A stretch of DNA of 54,139 nucleotides. It comes from an uncultured Clostridium sp. Lineage in GTDB: Bacteria > Bacillota > Clostridia > TANB77 > CAG-508. Both the position numbers and the translations under genes were made by a program. This document shows, piece by piece, positions 6,259-24,969 of the stretch. The stretch's first letter is position 1. The number at the start of each line of letters is the position of its first letter. The stretch covers positions 1-54,139 of the forward strand of contig CAMMMI010000001.1 in NCBI GenBank assembly GCA_946497905.1, read 5' to 3'. The notes under the pieces are model-generated. The model was not told where the DNA came from. It worked only from the letters and a program-made list of their open reading frames with translations, and made no database searches.

Positions 6259-6334
6259 CGAGGCGTAGCGCAGTTGGTAGCGCGCGTGGTTTGGGACCAT
6301 GAGGTCGCAGGTTCGATCCCTGTCGCCTCGACCA
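6259..6334 (+). tRNA. tRNA-Pro (anticodon TGG); its 3' end is the integration site of the IME
   Basis: CGAGGCG acceptor, GCGC D-stem, CGTGG/CCATG anticodon stem, loop TTTGGGA, GCAGG-TTCGATC-CCTGT T-arm, CGCCTCG-A-CCA. Confidence 0.9.
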
Positions 6335-6393
6335 GAAAAAGAGACTTTTTACAAGTCTCTTAATTTGTTTTTTGGCTATTTTAAGCCTTTTTT
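6326..6393 (+). repeat. attL (tRNA-Pro 3' end + hairpin allele A + shared 20-mer)
   Basis: CCTCGACCAGAAAAAG ... AGAGAC-N9-GTCTCT ... GGCTATTTTAAGCCTTTTTT. Confidence 0.75.
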
Positions 6394-6437
6394 CTTTTCT
6401 CAAACTTTTTCAAAATTTCTCTATATTTGTGTTACTG

Positions 6438-6488
6438 CATTCAAAATTACATTCAGATTTCTACAATTGAATGTAATAATTGCATTCA
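6438..6488. promoter_or_regulatory. Candidate integrase arm-type sites, P' arm (4 x CATTCA)
   Basis: CATTCA at 6438, 6450 and 6483 (direct) and TGAATG at 6468 (inverted), all in a WGCATTCAAA / TACATTCAG context. Confidence 0.45.
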
Positions 6489-6528
6489 AATTTTATAAGC
6501 ATATAAATATTTTTTAATTATTTAAAAT

Positions 6529-6553
6529 TAGGAAAGTACAATGTACCTTCCTA
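6529..6553 (-). terminator. Terminator of the leftward IME operon
   Basis: On the minus strand: aggaaggtac-att-gtactttcct followed by a T-rich tract, 27 nt after the ABC gene stop. Confidence 0.55.
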
Positions 6554-6579
6554 ATCGAAAAAACAGTAGATTAAATGTG

Positions 6580-8403
6580 TTAAATCTCTTTTACTAAATT
6601 AAATTCTCCAGCCTTTGCAAACTGTAAGTTTCTAAATGTGTACTCATTAGCAAGTTTACTTTTGAATCCATCAATGTTTTGGTGAGTTGAAATAATTACA
6701 ATTCGTTTTTTATCCGAGTTAGCATACCTCACAATGTACTCCAAAATTTTTTCTGCATCAGCAGAATCAGATTCCGTCTTATCATCAAGACCTGATGTAC
6801 ATTCATCCAAAACAATAACATCAATTTCATCATCTAACCAGTATAGCATCTTTGCAAGAATAAGTCTCTGTTTCTGTCCATTTGAAAGCGACTGCTCAAA
6901 TTGTTTTTCTTTCATCCATTTCCATACATCAAAGCAATTAGATTTTATTTCACACCACAAATGGAGATTCTCTAAAATCTTTTGCATTTTTGCAAGATCT
7001 GGATTCTCATTACAACAGAACAGCTCTTCAAAAATACTCAAACTACCAAACTTCAACTTTTCATCATAGAACAAAAATCGTGATGTCGAGGGTATCTCTG
7101 TACTCTTTTCCAATCTGATTCTTTCGGTTAACATCTTCATAAATGTCGATTTACCACTACCAGATGGTCCGTACAGAATAACAACCTCTCCGTTATTAAT
7201 GTGTATCTGCTTTTTTGAAATTAATGTGAAAGGTTTATCGTTCTCGGATTCCTCCAAATACTGAATCGAGAATGGATTTATTCTTATATTGTCAACAATT
7301 TTAGGTATAGAAACCTTTGCAGATTCATTATGATACACATCTAAAATTAATGACATATCCTTTTCTTCTTTTTCCAGTATGATTAACCTTTCATTGTGAT
7401 TGTTCAAAGTTTCAGCAATTCTGCTAATCTGTCCTAATGCTGTTTCAACAATCAGAAGTGTTGCAGTAATTTCTGTTATAGTAGCTAAATTGATACTACT
7501 CCACTCGACTCCTAACAGATAGAATATTATAATTCCATACTGACTAAGTGCTTCCATTATTGTTACAAATAATCTCGACAAATTCATCTTCTTGTGGAAC
7601 TTTGTAACATTCTCATTGCTCGCAATAACAGTCTTTTGAAATTTATTGATTCTCATATCCAAGTCATCTTTGACAATTACAGGAACACGAAGTAAATCAT
7701 TTACTATCAAAGACTGTTCGTTGTTATACTCTCTGTGTTTCTTATAATATGCTTCTCTATTCAAACTAATATATGCTGAACTAAAGAAAGAAATAAGCAC
7801 AAATATGAAAATCAGAGGAATAAAAACAACTTGTGAAATAGATGTGTTGGTTATTATGGCTACAGCTAGCATAATTATTACACTAATCATTTCAAATACA
7901 TCAAATGTATGTTGAATTTTCTGTCGCCACAGATTTTGCAAATAGTTCTTAATAGTATTTAACACCGATTCATTGCTCATTACTTTATACAATTTATTTG
8001 ATGTGTTATACTTCAAAACCTTATTTGCTGTCTTGCCGATGATTTGACTACCTCTGAATACAATTTCATCCTCAAAAATGAGTTCAAATTTCTTGTTTTC
8101 AGAGCTTTCAAAAAGATAAAATGCTTCCCTTACAACTTGCTGCCCACGATATAACATAAATAATATGATTCCAAGCAAAATCAACCTGTACTCAATCATC
8201 ATGTTTGTCGCTTTAAGCATAAATGCAAAAACAAGGGCGATTACGGTCATTCCCAGATTCATGAAACCCACTTTAAATCCCATCCGCTTTACACTTTCAG
8301 GAATAATGAGCATCTCATCTGATAAACCATATGGCTTGAAGAACTTAATAATGAGATTTATCACCTCCCGAATTAAATTTTTCAATTTTTCCTGTCCTTT
8401 CAT
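6580..8403 (-). CDS. ABC half-transporter-like protein (N-terminal multi-TM domain fused to an ABC ATPase); IME cargo
   Basis: Several hydrophobic helices in about aa 40-330. Walker A GPSGSGKST, signature LSNGQKQR, Walker B VIVLDECTSGLD, H-loop STHQ. Confidence 0.8.
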   Translation of the reverse strand: MKGQEKLKNLIREVINLIIKFFKPYGLSDEMLIIPESVKRMGFKVGFMNLGMTVIALVFAFMLKATNMMIEYRLILLGIILFMLYRGQQVVREAFYLFESSENKKFELIFEDEIVFRGSQIIGKTANKVLKYNTSNKLYKVMSNESVLNTIKNYLQNLWRQKIQHTFDVFEMISVIIMLAVAIITNTSISQVVFIPLIFIFVLISFFSSAYISLNREAYYKKHREYNNEQSLIVNDLLRVPVIVKDDLDMRINKFQKTVIASNENVTKFHKKMNLSRLFVTIMEALSQYGIIIFYLLGVEWSSINLATITEITATLLIVETALGQISRIAETLNNHNERLIILEKEEKDMSLILDVYHNESAKVSIPKIVDNIRINPFSIQYLEESENDKPFTLISKKQIHINNGEVVILYGPSGSGKSTFMKMLTERIRLEKSTEIPSTSRFLFYDEKLKFGSLSIFEELFCCNENPDLAKMQKILENLHLWCEIKSNCFDVWKWMKEKQFEQSLSNGQKQRLILAKMLYWLDDEIDVIVLDECTSGLDDKTESDSADAEKILEYIVRYANSDKKRIVIISTHQNIDGFKSKLANEYTFRNLQFAKAGEFNLVKEI

Positions 8404-8554
8404 GTGCTTTTCCTCCTTAATTATATGTGATAGAAAAAATTTTTTACAAAGGTATGTACCTCATACTTTTATTATAGCATATTTACATAATATTTTCTAT
8501 AATTATCCAAAAAATACAACAATTGGGTTCATCTCAAAGTCATTATATTTTTAT

Positions 8555-9790
8555 TTACATTTCTTCCTCTTCATCAAACCAATCAAAACCACTAGAATTA
8601 GCTTTTTTAATTGCATATTCTTTCATAGCTTGTTTTGATAAAGTTCTATATCTTCTAATTCTTATTTTAGGTCTATGATTTATTTGTGAGTTAGAAACCA
8701 TATTGCTGATAGCAATAATCCCACCAAGAATGTTATTAACCCTGTTTTCCATTTTATTTTGGAAATCTTGCTTTTCTGTTCCTCTTCCGTTTTTTTCAAT
8801 TCTTGTTTCAAGTTGTAAAATTGATTTTTCACTTCTTGTGCCACTAATTTTTGCATTTCCTTGTTCATCTGTATATTGTCCTTTAATAATCTTTCTAGTG
8901 TATCTTGTACTTTCTTTTTCATAATTGTTATATCTTCTACTATTGCTTGTTCCATTTGATATAAATCCTTTATTATCTCTGGCTCTATTAGATAATAATC
9001 CATCTTTACTATTGATGGAACTACTTGATTTTCTTGTATTATTTGATTGTTCTTTTTCAATTCTTCTAAATTCATTTTCCATTGCTCCTTTTGAATATTT
9101 TTTATCATATAATTTATTATCTCTACACTTATATCCTTCAGGCGTTGTATATGTAATGTATTTTCTTGTATCTGTCCAATTAACTTGATAACCTAACTTA
9201 TTCATTAATTTTATAAATTGCTCTTTGTTACTACTTTCTGCCAGTGATAAATCAATTGCATTTATTAACTTAAATTTCCAACTCTTACCCTGTTCAGCAA
9301 CTCTATATTCATTTCTTTTTATGTATTGTGTATTTTCTTTTTTAGGTATAACTGAAGCTCTTATCTCTAAGCACAACTTGTCTGAATAATCTTTTAAATC
9401 TTGTAAATCCTTTTTACTCATTTGAATTTTATATCCATTTTCAAATGAAACTGAATTTACAACTAAATGATTATGCAAATGTTTTTTATCAATATGTGTT
9501 GCAACTAATACCTGGTATCCATTGAATTTTTCTGCTAATCTAATACCGGTATTATGAACTTGTTCTGCAGATAAATTATCTTTTGGGGCAAATGATTGAA
9601 TAATATGAATATACTGTCTGCCATTATTCTTGTTATATAATTCTTTTGTATATAACATTTCTTCTAAACTACTTTCAGCTAAACAATCTTTTCCTGTTAT
9701 CAAATTAGCATTTGTTTTCTTGTCTTGTGTAACATAGTTTATAATTGTTTTTAAGTTTGCTTTTGAACTAATTGCTTCAATAATTGCCAT
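8555..9790 (-). CDS. Relaxase / mobilization nuclease (MobA/VirD2-type, MOBQ-like)
   Basis: N-terminal relaxase motifs: HIIQSFAP, and a His cluster HIDKKHLHNHLVVNSV. The start overlaps the mobC 3' end by 40 nt. Low-complexity C-terminal half with an acidic tail DWFDEEEEM. Confidence 0.85.
   Translation of the reverse strand: MAIIEAISSKANLKTIINYVTQDKKTNANLITGKDCLAESSLEEMLYTKELYNKNNGRQYIHIIQSFAPKDNLSAEQVHNTGIRLAEKFNGYQVLVATHIDKKHLHNHLVVNSVSFENGYKIQMSKKDLQDLKDYSDKLCLEIRASVIPKKENTQYIKRNEYRVAEQGKSWKFKLINAIDLSLAESSNKEQFIKLMNKLGYQVNWTDTRKYITYTTPEGYKCRDNKLYDKKYSKGAMENEFRRIEKEQSNNTRKSSSSINSKDGLLSNRARDNKGFISNGTSNSRRYNNYEKESTRYTRKIIKGQYTDEQGNAKISGTRSEKSILQLETRIEKNGRGTEKQDFQNKMENRVNNILGGIIAISNMVSNSQINHRPKIRIRRYRTLSKQAMKEYAIKKANSSGFDWFDEEEEM
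8680..9075 (-). CDS. Nested MobB-like ORF in an alternative frame inside the relaxase gene (coiled-coil + C-terminal TM helix)
   Basis: 142-aa ORF, of which 131 aa follow the second Met, preceded by AAAGGAG-9 nt-ATG. Non-degenerate, coiled-coil-like sequence ending in TGLITFLVGLLLSAIWFL. Confidence 0.45.
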   Translation of the reverse strand: MNLEELKKNNQIIQENQVVPSIVKMDYYLIEPEIIKDLYQMEQAIVEDITIMKKKVQDTLERLLKDNIQMNKEMQKLVAQEVKNQFYNLKQELKKTEEEQKSKISKIKWKTGLITFLVGLLLSAIWFLTHK

Positions 9791-9978
9791 ATATTATTCA
9801 CTTCCATTCGCAGTTCTTTCAAGTCAACTACTGTAATTATTTTTTCATTTGCAAGTCTTGTTAATTGATTAATATTATTTCCTATTCTTCGAAGCTCACT
9901 ATCTACTTTATCTAGTCCTTTTACTATAATAATTTTATCTTTTAAACACGAACTTACAATAAATTTTGTAATTGTCAT
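9751..9978 (-). CDS. mobC: MobC-family relaxosome accessory protein (the annotated ORF lacks its RHH N-terminus; see finding)
   Basis: LRRIGNNINQLTRLAN matches the MobC NxNQ motif. There is no SD before ATG 9978, while a strong GAGGAGG SD precedes an out-of-frame ATG at 10058. Confidence 0.75.
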   Translation of the reverse strand: MTITKFIVSSCLKDKIIIVKGLDKVDSELRRIGNNINQLTRLANEKIITVVDLKELRMEVNNIWQLLKQLVQKQT

Positions 9979-10114
9979 ATTACATTTCTTTGCTTTTGAT
10001 TCAATTATGCTTTTTCTTTTTCAGTTAATCGTATATTTATTTTCTTATCTTTGGGCATTCTATTCCTCCTCGTTTTCCCTAAAACAAATTAAAGGGGTTT
10101 GGGTTCTCCCAAGT

Positions 10115-10163
10115 TTGCAAGCTCTATTTGTAGTACTTGTACTTACAAATAGGAAGCTTGCAA
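10115..10163. promoter_or_regulatory. Candidate oriT inverted repeat
   Basis: TTGCAAGCTCTATTTGTA - 11 nt - TACAAATAGGAAGCTTGCAA, located between int and mobC. Confidence 0.45.
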
Positions 10164-10180
10164 TACTATATATTTGGTAT

Positions 10181-11359
10181 TTAATTACTGTTATTCACAA
10201 AATTTAATTGGTTATTATTTAAATAAGTATTTACCTTTTCAAGTTCATTTTCTTTAAATTTATTAAACACAGATGTGTATGTATTTAAAGTTACAGTTAC
10301 ATCTTTGTGTCCCATTAATCTTTGCAAAACGACTGCTGTCATTCCTGCTTCAATACATCTTGTTCCATAAGTATGTCTTAAACAATGGGTACTAATATTT
10401 TTTGAATCTACATTTAATTCTTCTTTGAAAATTCTTTTTAGTTCTTTATTAATTGCAGATGTTCTTATATAACTATCATTATTTGTAAATATTAAATTGT
10501 GTAAATTTTCATTTGTATATTTTAATTGTTCCTCAAAAATTGGAACTAAAAAATCTGGTATAGGTAAAGTTCTATTACCTGAATACGTTTTTGTCTTATT
10601 TCCTAAAATAATGGCAAATTCTTTGTCATTTGTTAGTGTTCTCTTAACATATAAAAGTTTATTTTCTAAATCAATATTTTCTTTGCTTAATGCAAGTACT
10701 TCGCCTATTCTTAATCCCATATACATTTGTAGTAAAAATATATTTTTATATGGTTCGTTTTCTATTGAAACTTTATTCAAATATTGTGTAAATTCTTTTT
10801 GCACATTGATATTTAATGCTTCAACCACTTTTGTTTGTTTATTACTTTTAGGTTTTATAACTTCATACATTGGGTTATATGAAATGTATTTTTTTATTTC
10901 TGCTCTACGATATGCTTGTACAAATTGTTCATAAATTTTCTTGATATACGAATCACTTAAATCTTTAATAGAATTTAAAAATTCTTGAATATCATCTTTG
11001 GTTATATCCTGTATTTTCATATTTCCAATATTGCTATTTTTAATTTTATTGATAGTCCATTTTAATCTAGCATATTGACCACCTGAAATTGTATTAGATG
11101 CCAATTTTTCTTCTCTTATATCTTCCATAATTTTTACTAATTTAATTCCATTTTTTTCTATATACATGTCATTATTCATTTTATATTTAATCTCATTTAA
11201 TTTATTTATGACCTCTTTTTGAGTCTTTCCATATACTGATTTTCTAATGACTTTTCCATCTACAGATGTTCCATATATATATTGACCAATCCATCTTTTA
11301 TTTTTCTTATCTTCAAATATTGTGCCTTCGCCATTTCCTCTTCTTCTTTTTCTCTTCAT
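10181..11359 (-). CDS. int: Tyrosine recombinase / site-specific integrase
   Basis: N-terminal arm-binding-like GNGEGTIFEDKKNKRWIGQ. Catalytic region LRIGEVLAL ... HCLRHTYGTR ... LMGHKDVTVTLNTYTSV (R-H-R-Y pattern). Confidence 0.9.
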   Translation of the reverse strand: MKRKRRRGNGEGTIFEDKKNKRWIGQYIYGTSVDGKVIRKSVYGKTQKEVINKLNEIKYKMNNDMYIEKNGIKLVKIMEDIREEKLASNTISGGQYARLKWTINKIKNSNIGNMKIQDITKDDIQEFLNSIKDLSDSYIKKIYEQFVQAYRRAEIKKYISYNPMYEVIKPKSNKQTKVVEALNINVQKEFTQYLNKVSIENEPYKNIFLLQMYMGLRIGEVLALSKENIDLENKLLYVKRTLTNDKEFAIILGNKTKTYSGNRTLPIPDFLVPIFEEQLKYTNENLHNLIFTNNDSYIRTSAINKELKRIFKEELNVDSKNISTHCLRHTYGTRCIEAGMTAVVLQRLMGHKDVTVTLNTYTSVFNKFKENELEKVNTYLNNNQLNFVNNSN

Positions 11360-11371
11360 AATTTTGACCTC

Positions 11372-12175
11372 CTATTTTGCAAGTTCATTAACCAAACTTG
11401 AAATATAATATTCTATTATGTTTTCGATATTTTTATTTTTTAAGATATTACCAAATACTTTTTCTAGTATAGGTAAAGTTACTTTTTCCAATAATTCTCC
11501 CTGTTTATTATCGTATAACCTTTTTACTGCCAATTGATATAGTTTTATTTGAGTTAGTACACTTTTTGGTAAGTACTCTGAGTTTTCAAAATATATTTTC
11601 TTTTGTTTAAAAATTACATTATATTTTGCTGTTTCTTTTTGAACTAAATTTGTTTTATTTAATTTTAAATTAATTAAATCTAATCCATCATTCAATCCAT
11701 TATTTTCTATATCTTCATCTATCTCTATATCTAACTCTTTATCTATATCTATCTCTTGTGGACTATTTGGTAGACATTGTCCACTTAATAATTTCTGCTT
11801 TTCTCTTTGTTCTCTTTTTTGTTTTGCCCAACCAGTTTCACTACCTACCATATTTTCAAATCCAGCTATTTTTAAACAAATTCCATCATCTGTATAAATT
11901 AAATTTAGTTTTTTAAATAGTTCCATAGCAACTATAACAGTATCTTTACTAAAATATTTAGTATCTCTTACTATTTTTTCTGGATCATAGGGAATAATCA
12001 TTTCTCCAACTCGTGATGCTAATTCTCCATTATTATTAGCAGTTTGTAGGCATAGCATTTGATACAAAACGATATACTGACAACCATCTTTTTGTGATAA
12101 TAAGAAATCTATTTCGGCTAAATTAAAGAAATCAGTTTTTAATTTTATCCAATAATATCTTTTTGTTTTTTCCAT
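11372..12175 (-). CDS. Phage-replisome-organizer N-terminal-domain protein (putative IME replication initiator)
   Basis: RYYWIKLKTDFFNLAEIDFLLSQKDGCQYIVLYQMLCLQTANNNGEL matches the Phage_rep_org_N pattern. Acidic repeat linker EIDIDKELDIEIDEDIE. Confidence 0.7.
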   Translation of the reverse strand: MEKTKRYYWIKLKTDFFNLAEIDFLLSQKDGCQYIVLYQMLCLQTANNNGELASRVGEMIIPYDPEKIVRDTKYFSKDTVIVAMELFKKLNLIYTDDGICLKIAGFENMVGSETGWAKQKREQREKQKLLSGQCLPNSPQEIDIDKELDIEIDEDIENNGLNDGLDLINLKLNKTNLVQKETAKYNVIFKQKKIYFENSEYLPKSVLTQIKLYQLAVKRLYDNKQGELLEKVTLPILEKVFGNILKNKNIENIIEYYISSLVNELAK

Positions 12176-12334
12176 AATTTACTCACTTTCCAGTATTTCT
12201 ACTTAATTTTCTATTGTTAAAAATAAGGAAAAATGATATACTATTTATATAAAGATTGCGAATATCTTTATGTGGCATTTGTGCAAAAGTCTGCTCGACA
12301 AAGTGTACTTTTGTATAAATGCTTTTTAAATTTT

Positions 12335-12580
12335 TCATATAACATCAATCCTTTTTTCCATCTTCCACAGAATATAAGCAATTTTTTGTATTTTTCTTGT
12401 TTTGCCAATATTCACAGATGGAAAATCTGCACGATTAAATATTTCGTTTGTTTTGTTTTCTCCCATATACAAATCTTTTGCTACATCTTTTACAGTTAGC
12501 ATTTTAAATGGGTCATCTAAGCTCTTTATAGCTTGTTTTACTAATTCTTTCTTAAGTTCTTCACTAAAATTTTCATTCAT
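12335..12580 (-). CDS. Excisionase-family / MerR-like HTH DNA-binding protein
   Basis: LTVKDVAKDLYMGENKTNEIFNRADFPSVNIGKTRKIQKIAYILW resembles HTH_17 excisionase-type proteins. First gene of the leftward operon. Confidence 0.65.
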   Translation of the reverse strand: MNENFSEELKKELVKQAIKSLDDPFKMLTVKDVAKDLYMGENKTNEIFNRADFPSVNIGKTRKIQKIAYILWKMEKRIDVI

Positions 12581-12608
12581 AATTTTGTCCTCCTTTGAAA
12601 TTTCTATA

Positions 12609-12839
12609 ATCCATTTTGGATACTTAATAAGTAAAAAAATAAATCTTATTCATATTTTTATTTTTATAGCATACCTCCTTTCAAATTTATCTGTATCCGT
12701 TTTGGATATTTATATAATAATCCAAAATGGATATATTGTCAATACCTTTTTCAAAATTTTTTAAACTTTCTAAAACTTTTATATAAAAAATATTTAATTT
12801 TCAACGATTATTGACTTTCCAAAATGGATATGATAAAAT
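12609..12839. promoter_or_regulatory. Divergent promoter/operator switch region of the IME
   Basis: Leftward promoter TTGACA(12742-12737)-17-TATTAT(12719-14). Rightward promoter TTGACT(12811-16)-17-TAAAAT(12834-39). Four ATCCAWWWWGGATA-type palindromes at 12609, 12695, 12720 and 12817; the last two fill the promoter spacers. Confidence 0.65.
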
Positions 12840-12869
12840 TTAAACATAAATTGAGAAGGAGAAAAAATT

Positions 12870-13619
12870 ATGACAAATGGCGAAAGAATAAAGTATTTAA
12901 GAGAAAAAAATGGATTTACTCAAAAAGATATTGCTACAAGATTAGGAGTAGAACCTGCAGCAATATCAAAATATGAATTAGATATGAGAGAGCCAAATAT
13001 AGAAGCAATAAAAAAACTAGCTACAATTTTTAATGTTTCAATAGATTATTTACTTGGAAGAACACCAGATGTTTTTGTAGATGAAACAAATAGAGATACA
13101 CTTGATATATCTGCTATTAAAGACAAATATAACTTTACAAAAAAGAGAATGGATAAAGTAAAAGAAATCTATAAAAATGATACTACACTAAGCACAGCAA
13201 TAAACGAATTATGTTGTGGTGTAGGAAAAACTACTTTTGGACAAACTATAACAAATACAAATATTTCAATGCTAGAAATAGAAAGCATGTTTAATGATTT
13301 TGAAAACAGCAAAGATCCTAAACCACAAATTATAATGAAAGTTAAAAATTTAGAAAATAGTATTATAATTGTTGAGATTGATTCTTTTGATGATGAAGAA
13401 ATGCCACTTGATGCAACTGATAGAATTGCTTTATATACTACAAAATTATCACAAAAATATAATGTGCTTGGTTTAGTAATGACAATTGATAAAGATGAAA
13501 ATTGTAAAATTATAGATGCTATATATCAAAAAAATAAAGATACTTATTATACTCAATTACATTTGCCTAAAACAGTATTAACTGCTGGAGAGTATATTGA
13601 TATAATGAGTAGATTATAG
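12870..13619 (+). CDS. XRE-family HTH regulator with an uncharacterised ~170-aa C-terminal domain
   Basis: GAAGGAG RBS. N-terminus MTNGERIKYLREKNGFTQKDIATRLGVEPAAISKYELDMREPNIEAIKKLATIFNVSIDYLLGR is a typical HTH_3. No motif recognised in the C-terminal part. Confidence 0.8.
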   Translation: MTNGERIKYLREKNGFTQKDIATRLGVEPAAISKYELDMREPNIEAIKKLATIFNVSIDYLLGRTPDVFVDETNRDTLDISAIKDKYNFTKKRMDKVKEIYKNDTTLSTAINELCCGVGKTTFGQTITNTNISMLEIESMFNDFENSKDPKPQIIMKVKNLENSIIIVEIDSFDDEEMPLDATDRIALYTTKLSQKYNVLGLVMTIDKDENCKIIDAIYQKNKDTYYTQLHLPKTVLTAGEYIDIMSRL

Positions 13620-13635
13620 GAAGGAGTAAATCTTA

Positions 13636-15312
13636 ATGGAAGATTCAGAACTTAAACAAATATTATTTTCATTATTAAAAAATGATGAAAATGAGTGTAT
13701 AGAATATAAAGAAGCAAATAATAGTTTTGATTTTGAAAAACTCGGAAAATATTTTTCTGCATTGAGTAATGCTGCTAACTTGGTTGGAAAGCAATATTCA
13801 TGGTTAATCTTTGGAATTAAAGATAAAACTCACGAGTTTGTTAATACTAAATATAGAAACAATGGAAATTTGAATAAGTTAAAAAAAGAAATTACAAAAG
13901 GAACTAACGATGGAATTACTTTTTTGGATATTTTTGAATTATTTGTAGAAGATAATAAAAGAGTAATAATGTTTAAAATACCAGCAGCTATGGGAATTCC
14001 CACAACATGGAGAGGATTTGCTTATGATAGAAATGATGAGGATTTAGTCCCTTTAAATCAAATGAAATCTGATCAAATTAAGTCAACAATGAATTTCGAT
14101 TGGTCAAGACAGATTATAGAAAGTTTGACAGTAGATGATTTAGACAAAGAAGCCATTTTAAAAGCAAGAGAACAATTTAAAAAGAAAAATGAAGATAAAG
14201 AAATTGCTAAAGAAGTGGATAATATGGATGATATTACATTTCTAAATAAAGCGAAGGTTTTATTAAATGGTAAAGTGACTCGTACAGCTTTACTATTACT
14301 TGGAAAAGAAGAAAATAGTTATTTGTTTGAAGATTTTATTCCGCAAATAACGTGGAAATTACAAGAGAATGGAGAAATTTTAGATTATGAACACTTTACA
14401 ATTCCATTTTTAGTAAATGTTGAAAAAGCAAAAAATAAAATTAGAAATTTAAGATATAGATATATGGTTAATGAAATAACATTATTTCCCAACGAAGTGG
14501 ATCAATATGATAATTATACTTTAAGAGAGTTATTAAACAATGCAATCGCTCATCAAGATTACAGAAAACATGGTAGAATAAATATATTAGAAATGAAAGA
14601 AAAATTAATTTTTATAAATGAAGGAAGTTTTATTCCTCAAAATGTTGACAAATTTTTACTAGATGAAAGTTATGTTCCTCCATATTATAGAAATCCGTTT
14701 TTAGCAAATGCTATGGTTAATTTAAATATGATTGATACTGCTGGAAGTGGCATAAGAAGAGTATTTAATAATCAAAAGCAAAAATTCTTTCCTATGCCAG
14801 ACTATGATTTATCAGTAGAGGGAAGAGTAAAAGTAACTTTGTATGGAAAAATATTAGATGAAAAATATACAAAAATGCTTTTTGAAAAAACTGATTTAGA
14901 TATTGGTATTGTAATGCTTTTAGATAGAGTTCAAAAAGGAATACATATAGCAAAGCAGGAGTCTGATTTATTAAAAAAAGAAAAATTAGTAGAAGGAAGA
15001 TATCCAAACTTATATATTTCTAAAGAAATTTCAGAAATAACAGATGAAAAAGCAAAATATATAAAAAATCGTGGATTAAGTAATGATATGTATAAACAAA
15101 TGATAGTAGAATTGATAAAGACATATGGTAAAGCAACAAGAAATGAAATAAATGATTTGTTACTTGATAAAATGCCAGAATTCTTATCTGAAGATAAGAA
15201 AAAAAGAAGGATTAAATATTTATTAATTGAATGTTTGCAAAATAAAGAGAAAAAAATAAAAAATATTGGAAGTCGTACAAATTCTATATGGGTTTTAAAT
15301 AAAGATGATTAA
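13636..15312 (+). CDS. AlbA_2 (Schlafen-like) + HATPase_c_4 / RecG-C-like putative DNA-binding protein
   Basis: N-terminus ECIEYKEANNSF...ALSNAANLVGKQYSWLIFGIKD (AlbA_2 pattern). Central LRELLNNAIAHQDYRKHGRINILEMKEKLIFINEGSF (HATPase_c_4 pattern). GGAGTAA RBS 16 nt after the XRE stop. Confidence 0.7.
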   Translation: MEDSELKQILFSLLKNDENECIEYKEANNSFDFEKLGKYFSALSNAANLVGKQYSWLIFGIKDKTHEFVNTKYRNNGNLNKLKKEITKGTNDGITFLDIFELFVEDNKRVIMFKIPAAMGIPTTWRGFAYDRNDEDLVPLNQMKSDQIKSTMNFDWSRQIIESLTVDDLDKEAILKAREQFKKKNEDKEIAKEVDNMDDITFLNKAKVLLNGKVTRTALLLLGKEENSYLFEDFIPQITWKLQENGEILDYEHFTIPFLVNVEKAKNKIRNLRYRYMVNEITLFPNEVDQYDNYTLRELLNNAIAHQDYRKHGRINILEMKEKLIFINEGSFIPQNVDKFLLDESYVPPYYRNPFLANAMVNLNMIDTAGSGIRRVFNNQKQKFFPMPDYDLSVEGRVKVTLYGKILDEKYTKMLFEKTDLDIGIVMLLDRVQKGIHIAKQESDLLKKEKLVEGRYPNLYISKEISEITDEKAKYIKNRGLSNDMYKQMIVELIKTYGKATRNEINDLLLDKMPEFLSEDKKKRRIKYLLIECLQNKEKKIKNIGSRTNSIWVLNKDD

Positions 15313-15345
15313 ATATTTAAAATTTTCTAATTTTAAAAAATGATT

Positions 15346-15526
15346 GGCCGAAATTCAAAAAAATCCGGCCGAATTCTAAAAATATTCGGCCGAATTCCGG
15401 ACAAAAATCAGCCGAAATTCAAAAAAATCCGGCCGAATTCTAAAAATATTCGGCCGAATTCCGGGCGAATATCGGCCAAAATTCAAAAAAGTCCGGCTGA
15501 ATTCTAAAAATATTCGGCCGAATTCT
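15346..15526. repeat. GC-rich iteron array: 3 x 64-bp units = 9 x (C)GGCCGAA(A)TTC sites
   Basis: Site starts at 15346, 15367, 15388, 15410, 15431, 15452, 15474, 15495 and 15516, giving spacings of 21,21,22,21,21,22,21,21. Confidence 0.8.
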
Positions 15527-15606
15527 AAGCAGAAATTAATAAATTTAAAATTACAAATTTTGTAAAATCATAAATAAGCTTATGATATATTTTTCAATAT
15601 CCACAA

Positions 15607-15798
15607 TTAATTATTTTTAGTAAGTATTTCTTCTTCATATCCATCATCATATACCCAATGTATGTATTTAAAATCTCCACCAATTCTTGTATATTCATTT
15701 CCACCATCAATTGAACATGCCCCACATTTACATTTTTTATAATCGTGAACACTTAAAGATTCAATTATATCATTACATTTTAAGCATCTAATTTTCAT
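15607..15798 (-). CDS. Small Cys-rich zinc-ribbon-like protein (63 aa)
   Basis: GAGGTGG RBS. CxxC (CLKCN) and CKCGAC motifs. Last gene before the att site. Confidence 0.6.
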   Translation of the reverse strand: MKIRCLKCNDIIESLSVHDYKKCKCGACSIDGGNEYTRIGGDFKYIHWVYDDGYEEEILTKNN

Positions 15799-15869
15799 AA
15801 TTTTTCCACCTCTTATAGCTTTTCTTTAAGACAATTATACAAACATTTAAAAAATTTTTCAATAAAATT

Positions 15870-15896
15870 CATTCAACTGCATTCAAACTACATTCA
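15870..15896 (+). promoter_or_regulatory. Candidate integrase arm-type sites, P arm (3 direct CATTCA)
   Basis: CATTCA at 15870, 15880 and 15891 (10-11 bp spacing), about 55 bp from the tRNA-end repeat. Confidence 0.45.
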
Positions 15897-15949
15897 AAAA
15901 ATGTCGAATTGCTAGAAAATAGGTAATTCTCAAAAGTAAATTCTCCTCA

Positions 15950-16017
15950 CCTCGACCAGAAAAAGGAGCTTTTTACAAGCTCCTTAAATTGTTTTTAGGC
16001 TATTTTAAGCCTTTTTT
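15950..16017 (+). repeat. Inter-copy junction = reconstituted attP (hairpin allele B)
   Basis: CCTCGACCAGAAAAAG ... AGGAGC-N9-GCTCCT ... GGCTATTTTAAGCCTTTTTT, flanked by element sequence on both sides. Confidence 0.75.
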
Positions 16018-16061
16018 CTTTTCTCAAACTTTTTCAAAATTTCTCTATATTTGTGTTACTG

Positions 16062-16112
16062 CATTCAAAATTACATTCAGATTTCTACAATTGAATGTAA
16101 TAATTGCATTCA
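16062..16112. promoter_or_regulatory. Arm-type sites, P' arm, copy 2
   Basis: Identical to 6438-6488 (+9624). Confidence 0.45.
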
Positions 16113-16152
16113 AATTTTATAAGCATATAAATATTTTTTAATTATTTAAAAT

Positions 16153-16177
16153 TAGGAAAGTACAATGTACCTTCCTA
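16153..16177 (-). terminator. Terminator of the leftward operon, copy 2
   Basis: Identical to 6529-6553 (+9624). Confidence 0.55.
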
Positions 16178-16203
16178 ATCGAAAAAACAGTAGATTAAAT
16201 GTG

Positions 16204-18027
16204 TTAAATCTCTTTTACTAAATTAAATTCTCCAGCCTTTGCAAACTGTAAGTTTCTAAATGTGTACTCATTAGCAAGTTTACTTTTGAATCCATCAATG
16301 TTTTGGTGAGTTGAAATAATTACAATTCGTTTTTTATCCGAGTTAGCATACCTCACAATGTACTCCAAAATTTTTTCTGCATCAGCAGAATCAGATTCCG
16401 TCTTATCATCAAGACCTGATGTACATTCATCCAAAACAATAACATCAATTTCATCATCTAACCAGTATAGCATCTTTGCAAGAATAAGTCTCTGTTTCTG
16501 TCCATTTGAAAGCGACTGCTCAAATTGTTTTTCTTTCATCCATTTCCATACATCAAAGCAATTAGATTTTATTTCACACCACAAATGGAGATTCTCTAAA
16601 ATCTTTTGCATTTTTGCAAGATCTGGATTCTCATTACAACAGAACAGCTCTTCAAAAATACTCAAACTACCAAACTTCAACTTTTCATCATAGAACAAAA
16701 ATCGTGATGTCGAGGGTATCTCTGTACTCTTTTCCAATCTGATTCTTTCGGTTAACATCTTCATAAATGTCGATTTACCACTACCAGATGGTCCGTACAG
16801 AATAACAACCTCTCCGTTATTAATGTGTATCTGCTTTTTTGAAATTAATGTGAAAGGTTTATCGTTCTCGGATTCCTCCAAATACTGAATCGAGAATGGA
16901 TTTATTCTTATATTGTCAACAATTTTAGGTATAGAAACCTTTGCAGATTCATTATGATACACATCTAAAATTAATGACATATCCTTTTCTTCTTTTTCCA
17001 GTATGATTAACCTTTCATTGTGATTGTTCAAAGTTTCAGCAATTCTGCTAATCTGTCCTAATGCTGTTTCAACAATCAGAAGTGTTGCAGTAATTTCTGT
17101 TATAGTAGCTAAATTGATACTACTCCACTCGACTCCTAACAGATAGAATATTATAATTCCATACTGACTAAGTGCTTCCATTATTGTTACAAATAATCTC
17201 GACAAATTCATCTTCTTGTGGAACTTTGTAACATTCTCATTGCTCGCAATAACAGTCTTTTGAAATTTATTGATTCTCATATCCAAGTCATCTTTGACAA
17301 TTACAGGAACACGAAGTAAATCATTTACTATCAAAGACTGTTCGTTGTTATACTCTCTGTGTTTCTTATAATATGCTTCTCTATTCAAACTAATATATGC
17401 TGAACTAAAGAAAGAAATAAGCACAAATATGAAAATCAGAGGAATAAAAACAACTTGTGAAATAGATGTGTTGGTTATTATGGCTACAGCTAGCATAATT
17501 ATTACACTAATCATTTCAAATACATCAAATGTATGTTGAATTTTCTGTCGCCACAGATTTTGCAAATAGTTCTTAATAGTATTTAACACCGATTCATTGC
17601 TCATTACTTTATACAATTTATTTGATGTGTTATACTTCAAAACCTTATTTGCTGTCTTGCCGATGATTTGACTACCTCTGAATACAATTTCATCCTCAAA
17701 AATGAGTTCAAATTTCTTGTTTTCAGAGCTTTCAAAAAGATAAAATGCTTCCCTTACAACTTGCTGCCCACGATATAACATAAATAATATGATTCCAAGC
17801 AAAATCAACCTGTACTCAATCATCATGTTTGTCGCTTTAAGCATAAATGCAAAAACAAGGGCGATTACGGTCATTCCCAGATTCATGAAACCCACTTTAA
17901 ATCCCATCCGCTTTACACTTTCAGGAATAATGAGCATCTCATCTGATAAACCATATGGCTTGAAGAACTTAATAATGAGATTTATCACCTCCCGAATTAA
18001 ATTTTTCAATTTTTCCTGTCCTTTCAT
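16204..18027 (-). CDS. TMD-fused ABC ATPase, copy 2
   Basis: Translation identical to 6580-8403. Confidence 0.8.
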   Translation of the reverse strand: MKGQEKLKNLIREVINLIIKFFKPYGLSDEMLIIPESVKRMGFKVGFMNLGMTVIALVFAFMLKATNMMIEYRLILLGIILFMLYRGQQVVREAFYLFESSENKKFELIFEDEIVFRGSQIIGKTANKVLKYNTSNKLYKVMSNESVLNTIKNYLQNLWRQKIQHTFDVFEMISVIIMLAVAIITNTSISQVVFIPLIFIFVLISFFSSAYISLNREAYYKKHREYNNEQSLIVNDLLRVPVIVKDDLDMRINKFQKTVIASNENVTKFHKKMNLSRLFVTIMEALSQYGIIIFYLLGVEWSSINLATITEITATLLIVETALGQISRIAETLNNHNERLIILEKEEKDMSLILDVYHNESAKVSIPKIVDNIRINPFSIQYLEESENDKPFTLISKKQIHINNGEVVILYGPSGSGKSTFMKMLTERIRLEKSTEIPSTSRFLFYDEKLKFGSLSIFEELFCCNENPDLAKMQKILENLHLWCEIKSNCFDVWKWMKEKQFEQSLSNGQKQRLILAKMLYWLDDEIDVIVLDECTSGLDDKTESDSADAEKILEYIVRYANSDKKRIVIISTHQNIDGFKSKLANEYTFRNLQFAKAGEFNLVKEI

Positions 18028-18178
18028 GTGCTTTTCCTCCTTAATTATATGTGATAGAAAAAATTTTTTACAAAGGTATGTACCTCATACTTTTATTATA
18101 GCATATTTACATAATATTTTCTATAATTATCCAAAAAATACAACAATTGGGTTCATCTCAAAGTCATTATATTTTTAT

Positions 18179-19414
18179 TTACATTTCTTCCTCTTCATCA
18201 AACCAATCAAAACCACTAGAATTAGCTTTTTTAATTGCATATTCTTTCATAGCTTGTTTTGATAAAGTTCTATATCTTCTAATTCTTATTTTAGGTCTAT
18301 GATTTATTTGTGAGTTAGAAACCATATTGCTGATAGCAATAATCCCACCAAGAATGTTATTAACCCTGTTTTCCATTTTATTTTGGAAATCTTGCTTTTC
18401 TGTTCCTCTTCCGTTTTTTTCAATTCTTGTTTCAAGTTGTAAAATTGATTTTTCACTTCTTGTGCCACTAATTTTTGCATTTCCTTGTTCATCTGTATAT
18501 TGTCCTTTAATAATCTTTCTAGTGTATCTTGTACTTTCTTTTTCATAATTGTTATATCTTCTACTATTGCTTGTTCCATTTGATATAAATCCTTTATTAT
18601 CTCTGGCTCTATTAGATAATAATCCATCTTTACTATTGATGGAACTACTTGATTTTCTTGTATTATTTGATTGTTCTTTTTCAATTCTTCTAAATTCATT
18701 TTCCATTGCTCCTTTTGAATATTTTTTATCATATAATTTATTATCTCTACACTTATATCCTTCAGGCGTTGTATATGTAATGTATTTTCTTGTATCTGTC
18801 CAATTAACTTGATAACCTAACTTATTCATTAATTTTATAAATTGCTCTTTGTTACTACTTTCTGCCAGTGATAAATCAATTGCATTTATTAACTTAAATT
18901 TCCAACTCTTACCCTGTTCAGCAACTCTATATTCATTTCTTTTTATGTATTGTGTATTTTCTTTTTTAGGTATAACTGAAGCTCTTATCTCTAAGCACAA
19001 CTTGTCTGAATAATCTTTTAAATCTTGTAAATCCTTTTTACTCATTTGAATTTTATATCCATTTTCAAATGAAACTGAATTTACAACTAAATGATTATGC
19101 AAATGTTTTTTATCAATATGTGTTGCAACTAATACCTGGTATCCATTGAATTTTTCTGCTAATCTAATACCGGTATTATGAACTTGTTCTGCAGATAAAT
19201 TATCTTTTGGGGCAAATGATTGAATAATATGAATATACTGTCTGCCATTATTCTTGTTATATAATTCTTTTGTATATAACATTTCTTCTAAACTACTTTC
19301 AGCTAAACAATCTTTTCCTGTTATCAAATTAGCATTTGTTTTCTTGTCTTGTGTAACATAGTTTATAATTGTTTTTAAGTTTGCTTTTGAACTAATTGCT
19401 TCAATAATTGCCAT
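18179..19414 (-). CDS. MOBQ-like relaxase, copy 2
   Basis: Translation identical to 8555-9790. Confidence 0.85.
   Translation of the reverse strand: MAIIEAISSKANLKTIINYVTQDKKTNANLITGKDCLAESSLEEMLYTKELYNKNNGRQYIHIIQSFAPKDNLSAEQVHNTGIRLAEKFNGYQVLVATHIDKKHLHNHLVVNSVSFENGYKIQMSKKDLQDLKDYSDKLCLEIRASVIPKKENTQYIKRNEYRVAEQGKSWKFKLINAIDLSLAESSNKEQFIKLMNKLGYQVNWTDTRKYITYTTPEGYKCRDNKLYDKKYSKGAMENEFRRIEKEQSNNTRKSSSSINSKDGLLSNRARDNKGFISNGTSNSRRYNNYEKESTRYTRKIIKGQYTDEQGNAKISGTRSEKSILQLETRIEKNGRGTEKQDFQNKMENRVNNILGGIIAISNMVSNSQINHRPKIRIRRYRTLSKQAMKEYAIKKANSSGFDWFDEEEEM
18304..18699 (-). CDS. Nested MobB-like ORF, copy 2
   Basis: Identical to 8680-9075 (+9624). Confidence 0.45.
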   Translation of the reverse strand: MNLEELKKNNQIIQENQVVPSIVKMDYYLIEPEIIKDLYQMEQAIVEDITIMKKKVQDTLERLLKDNIQMNKEMQKLVAQEVKNQFYNLKQELKKTEEEQKSKISKIKWKTGLITFLVGLLLSAIWFLTHK

Positions 19415-19602
19415 ATATTATTCACTTCCATTCGCAGTTCTTTCAAGTCAACTACTGTAATTATTTTTTCATTTGCAAGTCTTGTTAATTGATTAATATT
19501 ATTTCCTATTCTTCGAAGCTCACTATCTACTTTATCTAGTCCTTTTACTATAATAATTTTATCTTTTAAACACGAACTTACAATAAATTTTGTAATTGTC
19601 AT
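19375..19602 (-). CDS. mobC: MobC-family protein, copy 2
   Basis: Translation identical to 9751-9978. Confidence 0.75.
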   Translation of the reverse strand: MTITKFIVSSCLKDKIIIVKGLDKVDSELRRIGNNINQLTRLANEKIITVVDLKELRMEVNNIWQLLKQLVQKQT

Positions 19603-19738
19603 ATTACATTTCTTTGCTTTTGATTCAATTATGCTTTTTCTTTTTCAGTTAATCGTATATTTATTTTCTTATCTTTGGGCATTCTATTCCTCCTCGTTTT
19701 CCCTAAAACAAATTAAAGGGGTTTGGGTTCTCCCAAGT

Positions 19739-19787
19739 TTGCAAGCTCTATTTGTAGTACTTGTACTTACAAATAGGAAGCTTGCAA
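19739..19787. promoter_or_regulatory. Candidate oriT inverted repeat, copy 2
   Basis: Identical to 10115-10163 (+9624). Confidence 0.45.
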
Positions 19788-19804
19788 TACTATATATTTG
19801 GTAT

Positions 19805-20983
19805 TTAATTACTGTTATTCACAAAATTTAATTGGTTATTATTTAAATAAGTATTTACCTTTTCAAGTTCATTTTCTTTAAATTTATTAAACACAGATGT
19901 GTATGTATTTAAAGTTACAGTTACATCTTTGTGTCCCATTAATCTTTGCAAAACGACTGCTGTCATTCCTGCTTCAATACATCTTGTTCCATAAGTATGT
20001 CTTAAACAATGGGTACTAATATTTTTTGAATCTACATTTAATTCTTCTTTGAAAATTCTTTTTAGTTCTTTATTAATTGCAGATGTTCTTATATAACTAT
20101 CATTATTTGTAAATATTAAATTGTGTAAATTTTCATTTGTATATTTTAATTGTTCCTCAAAAATTGGAACTAAAAAATCTGGTATAGGTAAAGTTCTATT
20201 ACCTGAATACGTTTTTGTCTTATTTCCTAAAATAATGGCAAATTCTTTGTCATTTGTTAGTGTTCTCTTAACATATAAAAGTTTATTTTCTAAATCAATA
20301 TTTTCTTTGCTTAATGCAAGTACTTCGCCTATTCTTAATCCCATATACATTTGTAGTAAAAATATATTTTTATATGGTTCGTTTTCTATTGAAACTTTAT
20401 TCAAATATTGTGTAAATTCTTTTTGCACATTGATATTTAATGCTTCAACCACTTTTGTTTGTTTATTACTTTTAGGTTTTATAACTTCATACATTGGGTT
20501 ATATGAAATGTATTTTTTTATTTCTGCTCTACGATATGCTTGTACAAATTGTTCATAAATTTTCTTGATATACGAATCACTTAAATCTTTAATAGAATTT
20601 AAAAATTCTTGAATATCATCTTTGGTTATATCCTGTATTTTCATATTTCCAATATTGCTATTTTTAATTTTATTGATAGTCCATTTTAATCTAGCATATT
20701 GACCACCTGAAATTGTATTAGATGCCAATTTTTCTTCTCTTATATCTTCCATAATTTTTACTAATTTAATTCCATTTTTTTCTATATACATGTCATTATT
20801 CATTTTATATTTAATCTCATTTAATTTATTTATGACCTCTTTTTGAGTCTTTCCATATACTGATTTTCTAATGACTTTTCCATCTACAGATGTTCCATAT
20901 ATATATTGACCAATCCATCTTTTATTTTTCTTATCTTCAAATATTGTGCCTTCGCCATTTCCTCTTCTTCTTTTTCTCTTCAT
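19805..20983 (-). CDS. int: Tyrosine integrase, copy 2
   Basis: Translation identical to 10181-11359. Confidence 0.9.
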   Translation of the reverse strand: MKRKRRRGNGEGTIFEDKKNKRWIGQYIYGTSVDGKVIRKSVYGKTQKEVINKLNEIKYKMNNDMYIEKNGIKLVKIMEDIREEKLASNTISGGQYARLKWTINKIKNSNIGNMKIQDITKDDIQEFLNSIKDLSDSYIKKIYEQFVQAYRRAEIKKYISYNPMYEVIKPKSNKQTKVVEALNINVQKEFTQYLNKVSIENEPYKNIFLLQMYMGLRIGEVLALSKENIDLENKLLYVKRTLTNDKEFAIILGNKTKTYSGNRTLPIPDFLVPIFEEQLKYTNENLHNLIFTNNDSYIRTSAINKELKRIFKEELNVDSKNISTHCLRHTYGTRCIEAGMTAVVLQRLMGHKDVTVTLNTYTSVFNKFKENELEKVNTYLNNNQLNFVNNSN

Positions 20984-20995
20984 AATTTTGACCTC

Positions 20996-21799
20996 CTATT
21001 TTGCAAGTTCATTAACCAAACTTGAAATATAATATTCTATTATGTTTTCGATATTTTTATTTTTTAAGATATTACCAAATACTTTTTCTAGTATAGGTAA
21101 AGTTACTTTTTCCAATAATTCTCCCTGTTTATTATCGTATAACCTTTTTACTGCCAATTGATATAGTTTTATTTGAGTTAGTACACTTTTTGGTAAGTAC
21201 TCTGAGTTTTCAAAATATATTTTCTTTTGTTTAAAAATTACATTATATTTTGCTGTTTCTTTTTGAACTAAATTTGTTTTATTTAATTTTAAATTAATTA
21301 AATCTAATCCATCATTCAATCCATTATTTTCTATATCTTCATCTATCTCTATATCTAACTCTTTATCTATATCTATCTCTTGTGGACTATTTGGTAGACA
21401 TTGTCCACTTAATAATTTCTGCTTTTCTCTTTGTTCTCTTTTTTGTTTTGCCCAACCAGTTTCACTACCTACCATATTTTCAAATCCAGCTATTTTTAAA
21501 CAAATTCCATCATCTGTATAAATTAAATTTAGTTTTTTAAATAGTTCCATAGCAACTATAACAGTATCTTTACTAAAATATTTAGTATCTCTTACTATTT
21601 TTTCTGGATCATAGGGAATAATCATTTCTCCAACTCGTGATGCTAATTCTCCATTATTATTAGCAGTTTGTAGGCATAGCATTTGATACAAAACGATATA
21701 CTGACAACCATCTTTTTGTGATAATAAGAAATCTATTTCGGCTAAATTAAAGAAATCAGTTTTTAATTTTATCCAATAATATCTTTTTGTTTTTTCCAT
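20996..21799 (-). CDS. Replisome-organizer-domain protein, copy 2
   Basis: Translation identical to 11372-12175. Confidence 0.7.
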   Translation of the reverse strand: MEKTKRYYWIKLKTDFFNLAEIDFLLSQKDGCQYIVLYQMLCLQTANNNGELASRVGEMIIPYDPEKIVRDTKYFSKDTVIVAMELFKKLNLIYTDDGICLKIAGFENMVGSETGWAKQKREQREKQKLLSGQCLPNSPQEIDIDKELDIEIDEDIENNGLNDGLDLINLKLNKTNLVQKETAKYNVIFKQKKIYFENSEYLPKSVLTQIKLYQLAVKRLYDNKQGELLEKVTLPILEKVFGNILKNKNIENIIEYYISSLVNELAK

Positions 21800-21958
21800 A
21801 ATTTACTCACTTTCCAGTATTTCTACTTAATTTTCTATTGTTAAAAATAAGGAAAAATGATATACTATTTATATAAAGATTGCGAATATCTTTATGTGGC
21901 ATTTGTGCAAAAGTCTGCTCGACAAAGTGTACTTTTGTATAAATGCTTTTTAAATTTT

Positions 21959-22204
21959 TCATATAACATCAATCCTTTTTTCCATCTTCCACAGAATATA
22001 AGCAATTTTTTGTATTTTTCTTGTTTTGCCAATATTCACAGATGGAAAATCTGCACGATTAAATATTTCGTTTGTTTTGTTTTCTCCCATATACAAATCT
22101 TTTGCTACATCTTTTACAGTTAGCATTTTAAATGGGTCATCTAAGCTCTTTATAGCTTGTTTTACTAATTCTTTCTTAAGTTCTTCACTAAAATTTTCAT
22201 TCAT
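21959..22204 (-). CDS. Excisionase-family HTH protein, copy 2
   Basis: Translation identical to 12335-12580. Confidence 0.65.
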   Translation of the reverse strand: MNENFSEELKKELVKQAIKSLDDPFKMLTVKDVAKDLYMGENKTNEIFNRADFPSVNIGKTRKIQKIAYILWKMEKRIDVI

Positions 22205-22232
22205 AATTTTGTCCTCCTTTGAAATTTCTATA

Positions 22233-22463
22233 ATCCATTTTGGATACTTAATAAGTAAAAAAATAAATCTTATTCATATTTTTATTTTTATAGCATACCT
22301 CCTTTCAAATTTATCTGTATCCGTTTTGGATATTTATATAATAATCCAAAATGGATATATTGTCAATACCTTTTTCAAAATTTTTTAAACTTTCTAAAAC
22401 TTTTATATAAAAAATATTTAATTTTCAACGATTATTGACTTTCCAAAATGGATATGATAAAAT
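22233..22463. promoter_or_regulatory. Divergent promoter/operator switch, copy 2
   Basis: Identical to 12609-12839 (+9624). Confidence 0.65.
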
Positions 22464-22493
22464 TTAAACATAAATTGAGAAGGAGAAAAAATT

Positions 22494-23243: not shown

Positions 23244-23259
23244 GAAGGAGTAAATCTTA

Positions 23260-24936: not shown

Positions 24937-24969
24937 ATATTTAAAATTTTCTAATTTTAAAAAATGATT

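Follow-up and report, generated by a model that had tools for sequence, protein, structure and literature searches.

Integrative mobilizable elements (IMEs) that use a tyrosine integrase to target the 3' end of tRNA genes have been reviewed (PMC5704250), and the principle by which such islands are mapped is that of Islander (PMC4383910). Tandem accretion of IMEs and ICEs with decayed elements (CIMEs) has been described for ICESt1-type elements and streptococcal IMEs (PMC5704250), and a passage of the same review records tandem arrays of Salmonella genomic island 1 (SGI1) in transconjugants (PMC5704250). The locus analysed here, at which two copies of a 9.6-kb element follow a tRNA-Pro gene, resembles the tRNA-targeting IMEs in the presence of an integrase together with a relaxase and MobC, the lack of conjugation machinery recognised by Pfam, insertion at the tRNA 3' end with restoration of the gene by the element and a displaced fragment at the far end, and the existence of empty sites in relatives. 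It differs from them in its hosts, which are uncultured gut Clostridia of 26% GC, and in that the element also bears a copy of the predicted terminator of the tRNA.

Organization of the Locus and of the Tandem Unit

The window, that is the whole stretch of DNA that was analysed (54,139 nucleotides), is the largest contig among the 127 of a draft genome of 1.63 Mb with 26% GC and a completeness of 87%, in which RecA is encoded. Comparison of the unit at 6374-16017 with that at 15998-25641 revealed 0 mismatches at a period of 9624 nt, and the positions of all features are given in Table 1. Near the right end of each copy, internal 64-nt tandem repeats are present (15347-15525 and 24971-25149, with 93.9% self-matches at an offset of 64 nt).

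Table 1. Features of the tRNA-Pro locus and of the element, with positions in the window
Feature	Position	Strand	Remarks
tRNA-Pro(TGG)	6259..6334	+	Integration target; ARAGORN; acceptor pair C6-G67 is of the host type
attL identity block CCTCGACCAGAAAAAG	6326..6341	+	Predicted integrase crossover window in this genome
Element copy 1	6335..15958		9624 nt; seven genes assigned
Terminator-like hairpin, attL	6339..6361	+	AGAGAC/GTCTCT; T-rich tail to 6373
20-mer GGCTATTTTAAGCCTTTTTT	6374..6393	+	Contains the 14-nt palindrome; window of the proposed junction-making exchange
P' arm	6394..6492	+	Four (T/A)(G/A)CATTCA-type repeats at ~6438, 6450, 6467 (inverted) and 6483
ABC/AAA ATPase	6580-8403	-	Copy 1; 607 aa, domain scan
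Relaxase (MobA/VirD2-type)	8555-9790	-	Copy 1; PF03432, Pfam
MobC	9751-9978	-	Copy 1; PF05713, Pfam
Tyrosine integrase	10181-11359	-	Copy 1; 392 aa; PF00589, E 3e-24, residues 190-365
Replisome-organiser-like protein	11372-12175	-	Copy 1
HTH protein	12870-13619	+	Copy 1
HATPase_c_4 protein	13636-15312	+	Copy 1
P arm, copy 1	15860..15949	+	Three CATTCA repeats, 15872-15898
Junction between copies	15950..16017	+	Displaced tRNA 3' fragment (A67 CCTCGACCA), AGGAGC hairpin, 20-mer
Element copy 2	15959..25582		No difference from copy 1
attR	25574..25641	+	tRNA 3' fragment, AGGAGC hairpin, 20-mer; chromosomal (relic) from just past the crossover
Relic	25642..25777	+	Decayed P' arm and left end of an older L022-like element
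SIR2-family gene	25788..26504	-	First chromosomal gene right of the element; served to find the locus in other samples

Because a tyrosine integrase, a relaxase and MobC are found among its genes, the 9.6-kb unit is classified as an IME with putative mobilization. Direct repeats (9-16 nt in 16 loci) that include part of the target gene and empty sites in G003, G015, G021 and a sister strain are further features of this class, and the Pfam scan of 10 element ORFs revealed no VirB4- or VirD4-type domain, a result for which the 607-aa ABC/AAA ATPase leaves room for doubt. The CATTCA-type repeats of both arms are presumed from their arrangement to be arm-type integrase sites, since, as in a lambda-type attP, these motifs flank the core and differ from it, with three in the P arm and four in the P' arm, and are kept across 28 arms.

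The family is common in small, AT-rich gut Clostridia and constitutes a widespread yet undescribed group of mobilizable elements of these uncultured bacteria. No near match was found when a plasmid collection was searched with the element, and exact-protein look-ups returned zero matches for its ABC ATPase, HATPase_c_4 protein and integrase, as well as for the neighbouring DAPDH and a 243-aa start variant of the LexA-like protein, while the left-flank protein was matched in one short contig only. Between tRNA-Pro and the family element, L021, L024, L032 (G020), L035, L040 and L041 contain an additional integrase gene that is unrelated to that of the family (31-38% identity). These loci are arrays of different elements at one tRNA, the other element of the G020 array measuring ~20 kb, and members of the family are often found in arrays with decayed or unrelated partners.

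Comparison of the Three att Segments

All three att copies share CCTCGACCAGAAAAAG (6326-6341, 15950-15965 and 25574-25589), which comprises 9 nt of the tRNA and 7 nt past it, and they also share the 20-mer GGCTATTTTAAGCCTTTTTT (6374-6393, 15998-16017 and 25622-25641). The original prediction had recognised both blocks, with the first given as reaching 6 nt past the tRNA. Between the two blocks exactly 8 positions distinguish attL from the junction (6342, 6343, 6344, 6356, 6357, 6358, 6364 and 6373), and a hairpin is formed by AGAGAC-TTTTTACAA-GTCTCT in attL and by AGGAGC-TTTTTACAA-GCTCCT in the junction and attR, so that the eight compensatory hairpin differences and the 20-mer common to the three copies, as originally described, were borne out by comparing the segments. 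Past the 20-mer, attR departs from the other two copies at 25642, and 12 of the 64 positions of 25642-25705 differ from 6394-6457; the resulting identity of 81% agrees with the approximately 80% that had been estimated by eye.

In BLAST comparisons attL and the junction are 94% identical over 135 nt (E 7e-54), and attL and attR are 86% identical over 130 nt (E 5e-27), values far above chance. Up to 16017 the junction has the sequence of attR, and from 15998 onward that of attL, which establishes its recombinant make-up. The segment to the right of attR (25642-25777) retains one CATTCA site, has an internal deletion and ends with a terminator-like hairpin, AAAGAGGTAAAATCCTCTTT.

A Predicted tRNA-Pro Terminator in Elements and Chromosomes

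Both hairpin alleles fold into a 9-bp stem followed by a T-rich tail, with energies of -16.8 to -18.4 kcal/mol and z values of -2.5 to -4.2, and a terminator pattern scan also finds the hairpin at attL. Over 53 unique sites the hairpin occurs in three versions, all of which preserve Watson-Crick pairing, and the copy at 6339-6361 thus combines the GC-containing stem, T-run and compensatory changes of an intrinsic terminator. In G094, G242, G263 and G268, a complete tRNA-Pro gene stands directly before the AGGAGC hairpin, beyond which the DNA is unrelated; G173 has this arrangement with the AAGAGC version. On these contigs no 20-mer, arm or integrase was found. Since tRNA-Pro and the hairpin occur there without the 20-mer, arm and integrase, the hairpin is predicted to be the terminator of tRNA-Pro itself in part of the genus, a copy of which is borne by the element. 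At the same time, the AGAGAC hairpin is element-borne in L024, L034, L035 and L039, with no such hairpin in their right flanks. Both alleles are thus present in elements as well as in chromosomes, and neither is diagnostic of one or the other. At L083 (G315) and L085 (G147) an AGAGAC hairpin without the 20-mer stands behind two different element ends and is followed by ~190 nt that are nearly identical, which may represent a further element type with the hairpin but without the palindrome.

The 20-mer itself folds into a second, small hairpin with a U-run behind it. The 14-nt palindrome within it, GGCTATTTTAAGCC, has dyad symmetry with a 6-nt spacer and is nearly invariant in 28 unique arms with variable surroundings, being the most conserved part of the arm.

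Site of Strand Exchange by the Family Integrase

Searches with the integrase retrieved 31 loci from gut Clostridia MAGs, and a motif scan retrieved 13 metagenome contigs. In the 16 loci with both ends, the attL/attR repeat is merely 9-16 nt long and always includes C(C/T)(T/C)CGACCA around CCTCGACCA, the 3' end of tRNA-Pro; attL and attR diverge 0-6 nt past CCA, and the flanks right of attR in these paired loci show no relation to hairpin, 20-mer or arm. In three cases the right flank has its counterpart, from CCA onward, at an unoccupied tRNA-Pro gene of another genome, with 93% identity over 259 nt for G003 and L025, 92% over 259 nt for G015 and L034, and 89% over 109 nt for G021 and L041. 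A scan of 300 genomes within the genus, 61 of which contain family att sequences, revealed that attR-type matches end at query positions 109-116 (the CCA end being 109), while attL-type matches begin at 98. Because the repeats span 9-16 nt at this place and the empty sites match the occupied right flanks, the comparison places the strand exchange by the family integrase within the last 9 nt of tRNA-Pro.

Natural polymorphisms narrow this interval further. Position 67 of attL pairs with host position 6 in 18 of 19 tRNAs, while position 70 is of the element type in L059 (G3.T70) and G149 (A3.C70), where it mismatches the host 5' strand. As position 67 is host-type and position 70 element-type in attL, the crossover point probably lies at the 5' edge of CCTCGACCA, in the interval from tRNA position 67 to 70. 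In L073/L074 (G149, corresponding to L036) element C70 faces host A3 in an A3.C70 acceptor-stem mismatch and the native T70 is displaced to attR, whereas the attL tRNA-Pro of L059 presents the converse G3.T70. The sole attL tRNA with a C6.A67 mismatch is that of L058, whose coverage is below 1x, so that a sequencing error is possible.

The original prediction had located the strand exchange at insertion in the 20-mer. The family crossover lies instead in the tRNA end, and a 20-mer never follows attR in the 16 paired loci; where it does follow an attR (this genome, L036/G149 and G232), it is part of a relic arm.

A role of the palindrome, which lies ~40 nt downstream of the tRNA end, as a second recombination site can also be envisaged, at which the element integrase or a host Xer-like enzyme would swap terminator cassettes and build or resolve tandems. 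Such a site would account for the presence of either hairpin allele in elements and chromosomes alike, as well as for the exchanges and the one relic breakpoint located there, and it would fit the near-invariance of the 14-mer in 28 arms with variable surroundings, its dyad symmetry with a 6-nt spacer, the inclusion of the palindrome in the exchange window of this genome and the break of the G072 relic inside the spacer (GGCTATT|ATG). However, the palindrome is unlike the canonical core, the tRNA end is where 16 of 16 attL/attR pairs have their crossover, other relics break off elsewhere, and a small hairpin with a U-run could account for the conservation, which makes a second site a most improbable explanation. 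In the G072 locus (L075), the sequence right of attR reads GGCTATT|ATGTGCC after the relic hairpin, and similarity to the arm stops within the palindrome spacer.

The Chromosomal Hairpin Allele at This Locus

Exact-protein look-ups with SIR2 yielded three short contigs covering the locus in other samples, and a homology search with the LexA-like neighbour yielded 20 more. A sister strain whose flanks are 95.1% and 96.9% identical to those of the window has an element-free site in seven samples: L100 and L101 reach across the whole locus, the tRNA side is present in L102, L106 and L107, and L099 and L103 also carry the empty site. The order in the sister strain is a cadherin-like gene, tRNA-Arg, tRNA-Pro, the AGGAGC hairpin, a decayed 20-mer, a decayed arm in which CATTCA sites are still recognisable, and SIR2. 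In addition, four samples of the same lineage as the window (L089, L090, L093 and L095), whose right flanks are ~99.5% identical to this genome, contain a different element end, of which only the last 74 nt align (89%), and right of the core they have the AGGAGC hairpin with one loop base different, TTTTTA, the 20-mer and the relic. The samples with this other element variant are ERZ24773338, ERZ28614662, ERZ24773339 and ERZ24773317.

As the empty site of the sister strain and the four same-lineage samples with another element all carry AGGAGC at this place, sequence comparison shows the block of AGGAGC hairpin, 20-mer and relic to be chromosomal, the apparent remnant of an older L022-like family member. 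The AGAGAC hairpin of attL would then be the element's own P' copy of the tRNA-Pro terminator. A canonical crossover within 6326-6341 would give attL the element arm and leave the chromosomal sequence in attR, as is observed. The original assignment of AGAGAC to the chromosome and AGGAGC to the element is hence reversed, AGGAGC being present at element-free sites of the sister strain and of other species of the genus, and the pattern for which an exchange in the tRNA end had been dismissed, namely an element allele in attL, is the very one found. The unoccupied attB that had been proposed as a check was found in the sister strain with the AGGAGC allele, and empty sites with AGGAGC/GCTCCT downstream of tRNA-Pro had been named in advance as contrary to the earlier reading. 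The suggestion that an older related element left the right flank behind as a relic is supported.

In the reading first put forward, the chromosome would have had the order tRNA-Pro, AGAGAC hairpin, 20-mer and relic, attP would have been the junction with AGGAGC, and one reciprocal crossover in the 20-mer would have inserted a monomer or dimer. A single event of this kind covers both breakpoints (6373/6374 and 25641/25642) and leaves the junction as an unaltered attP, which fits the linkage of the P' and P arms with AGGAGC in relatives. However, AGGAGC lies right of the core in every element-free or differently occupied view (the sister strain, the four same-lineage samples and L050/L051), a site with AGAGAC, 20-mer and relic was found in none of the views of the locus, and a perfect 16-nt canonical core was on offer, the integrase having used the core in all 16 other loci. 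Insertion through the 20-mer is thus very unlikely.

Other sequences around the tRNA genes were also inspected. L050 was considered as an element-free site of the exact lineage, since AGGAGC, the 20-mer and the relic come after the 8 tRNA-like bases with which its contig starts; as these 8 bases lie at the contig end and include an unexpected A67, it was retained as suggestive only. Between the relic (25583-25777) and 36 kb, where a second P arm or tRNA fragment was sought, none was found, and only left-end sequence is present. The interval of 25.7-30.8 kb was rejected as a decayed element after an old P arm sought near 30766 gave only an 11-nt match (E 0.37).

Left of tRNA-Pro, L099 and L103 have a 493-aa gene of the phage-integrase family, small ORFs and a sigma-70 region 4 protein, the integrase-family gene occupying the place of the cadherin-like gene of L100/L101; this left neighbour is another mobile element at the tRNA-Arg/tRNA-Pro pair. 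In L042 (5102-5812 of the reverse-complemented locus) a SIR2 homologue with 78% amino-acid identity lies between tRNA-Arg and tRNA-Pro in the orientation opposite to that in the window, and at L036 the SIR2-to-DAPDH block is absent at this place. The neighbourhood of the tRNA is thus rearranged between species.

Proposed Origin of the Tandem

The proposed history begins with a chromosome that would already have held the left end of an older member, with its AGGAGC hairpin, 20-mer and decayed arm, between tRNA-Pro and SIR2. The present element would have entered at the normal tRNA-end site, its P' arm bringing a replacement tRNA end, a copy of the terminator hairpin in the AGAGAC version, the conserved 14-nt palindrome and the CATTCA arm sites, with the outcome that attL received the element hairpin and attR retained the chromosomal relic hairpin. 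An integrase crossover at the core cannot yield the observed junction, because it would put AGAGAC there. Unequal homologous recombination between direct repeats gives a junction that consists of the right repeat and then, past the crossover, of the left repeat, and one such RecA-type exchange between attR and attL of sister chromosomes would have produced the tandem duplication. This exchange would have fallen in the 20-nt block, with the switch between 6373/6374 and 6393/6394, since within ~135 nt of 86% similar DNA this block has the longest perfect identity (20 nt as compared to the 16-nt core block). Identity over 20 nt is near the lower limit usually quoted for RecA. Of the earlier proposal of a homeologous exchange in the 20-mer window, the exchange is thus retained for the copy-to-copy junction, which needs it, and abandoned for the insertion, which does not. 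Canonical insertion followed by unequal homologous exchange is the account that we favour with moderate confidence, the order of events and the dependence on RecA being parts that we infer.

Several observations count against this account. The AGAGAC hairpin together with this P' arm was not found elsewhere, the same arm-proximal sequence being always linked to AGGAGC in 13 metagenome contigs and ~10 MAG loci, and the P-arm type of the element (TTCTCCTCA) is usually paired with AGGAGC. By this linkage in relatives the junction looks like a native attP and attL like the recombinant. Polarising the events by the linkage of arm type and hairpin allele was attempted and given up, as the family is too mosaic to decide.

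If the junction were indeed a native attP, the tandem would be canonical, formed, as SGI1 arrays are, through a dimer or through repeated integration, and attL alone would be altered: an AGAGAC-type member between the tRNA and the element would have been lost by homologous deletion or would have left a gene-conversion patch, with the switch in the 20-mer. The junction and attR would then both be ordinary products and the arm would have its usual AGGAGC partner; another element between tRNA-Pro and the family member is common (L021, L024, L032, L035 and L041), and tandem SGI1 arrays in transconjugants are documented in the passage of the review noted above (PMC5704250). However, at least three events are needed, a deletion between elements of 82-92% identity is expected in the long identical stretches of the backbone and not in the first 20 nt, and 68 nt of the relic (core, hairpin and 20-mer) must equal those of the element by coincidence. 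An altered attL beside a native junction is for these reasons distinctly unlikely.

The tandem as a physical molecule is likewise an interpretation of the assembly. A tandem can be simulated in a metagenome assembly when the path runs through an integrated copy and then through a circular copy or a variant. There might therefore be one integrated copy only, joined by the assembler to junction k-mers whose source is a circle, excised or replicating, or a co-resident variant of the strain, a possibility in keeping with the draft state of the genome (127 contigs, 87% complete), the 100% identity of the copies over 9.6 kb, the finding of no identical tandem at the ~25 other family loci and the breakage of contigs exactly in this att region in other assemblies. 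Yet the junction word (A, the 20-mer and C) must be in the reads at k of at least 21 and cannot be made from attL and attR, so that a molecule in which the AGGAGC hairpin is connected to this P' arm would be real even without a tandem, and canonical excision of a single copy would give an AGAGAC circle, while AGGAGC is what is seen. We regard an assembly artefact as unlikely, with some chance of being correct, and retain insertion at the tRNA end followed by unequal exchange as the preferred history.

Discussion

Overall, this locus reflects ordinary mobile-element biology, in which the 20-mer marks where the copies were joined and not where the element entered, and the current understanding of site-specific integration is unchanged by these results. 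A three-way att comparison within one genome needs an outgroup for polarity, and here the empty site of a sister strain reverses the reading. For a family of mobilizable elements that was undescribed, natural polymorphisms map the probable crossover cleanly, to tRNA positions 67-70. Remnants of earlier insertions at a tRNA hot spot are a source of homology, which can drive tandem amplification and the swapping of alleles between element and chromosome.

As compared to the subsites distinguished in PMC4383910 (anticodon loop, T-loop and T/acceptor junction), the predicted crossover lies later, in the 3' strand of the acceptor stem. At the same tRNA, the incoming element adjoins what is left of an older one, and several loci of the family are arrays with elements of unrelated integrases, both of which are reminiscent of CIME accretion. 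However, the remnant consists of ~200 nt of a left end and, because it is without an attR of its own, it is not a CIME, and the two full copies are identical and not merely related. As in unequal recombination between direct repeats, the proposed crossover falls in the longest identical block, although these repeats span only ~135 nt, at 86% similarity, and their identical block measures just 20 nt. The SGI1 arrays likewise consist of identical copies of a mobilizable island, arranged head to tail where it attaches; as far as the passage cited describes them (PMC5704250), they arise by concatemer transfer or repeated site-specific integration and keep a native attP at each junction, whereas the junction here has the chromosomal hairpin allele, which points to homologous unequal exchange.
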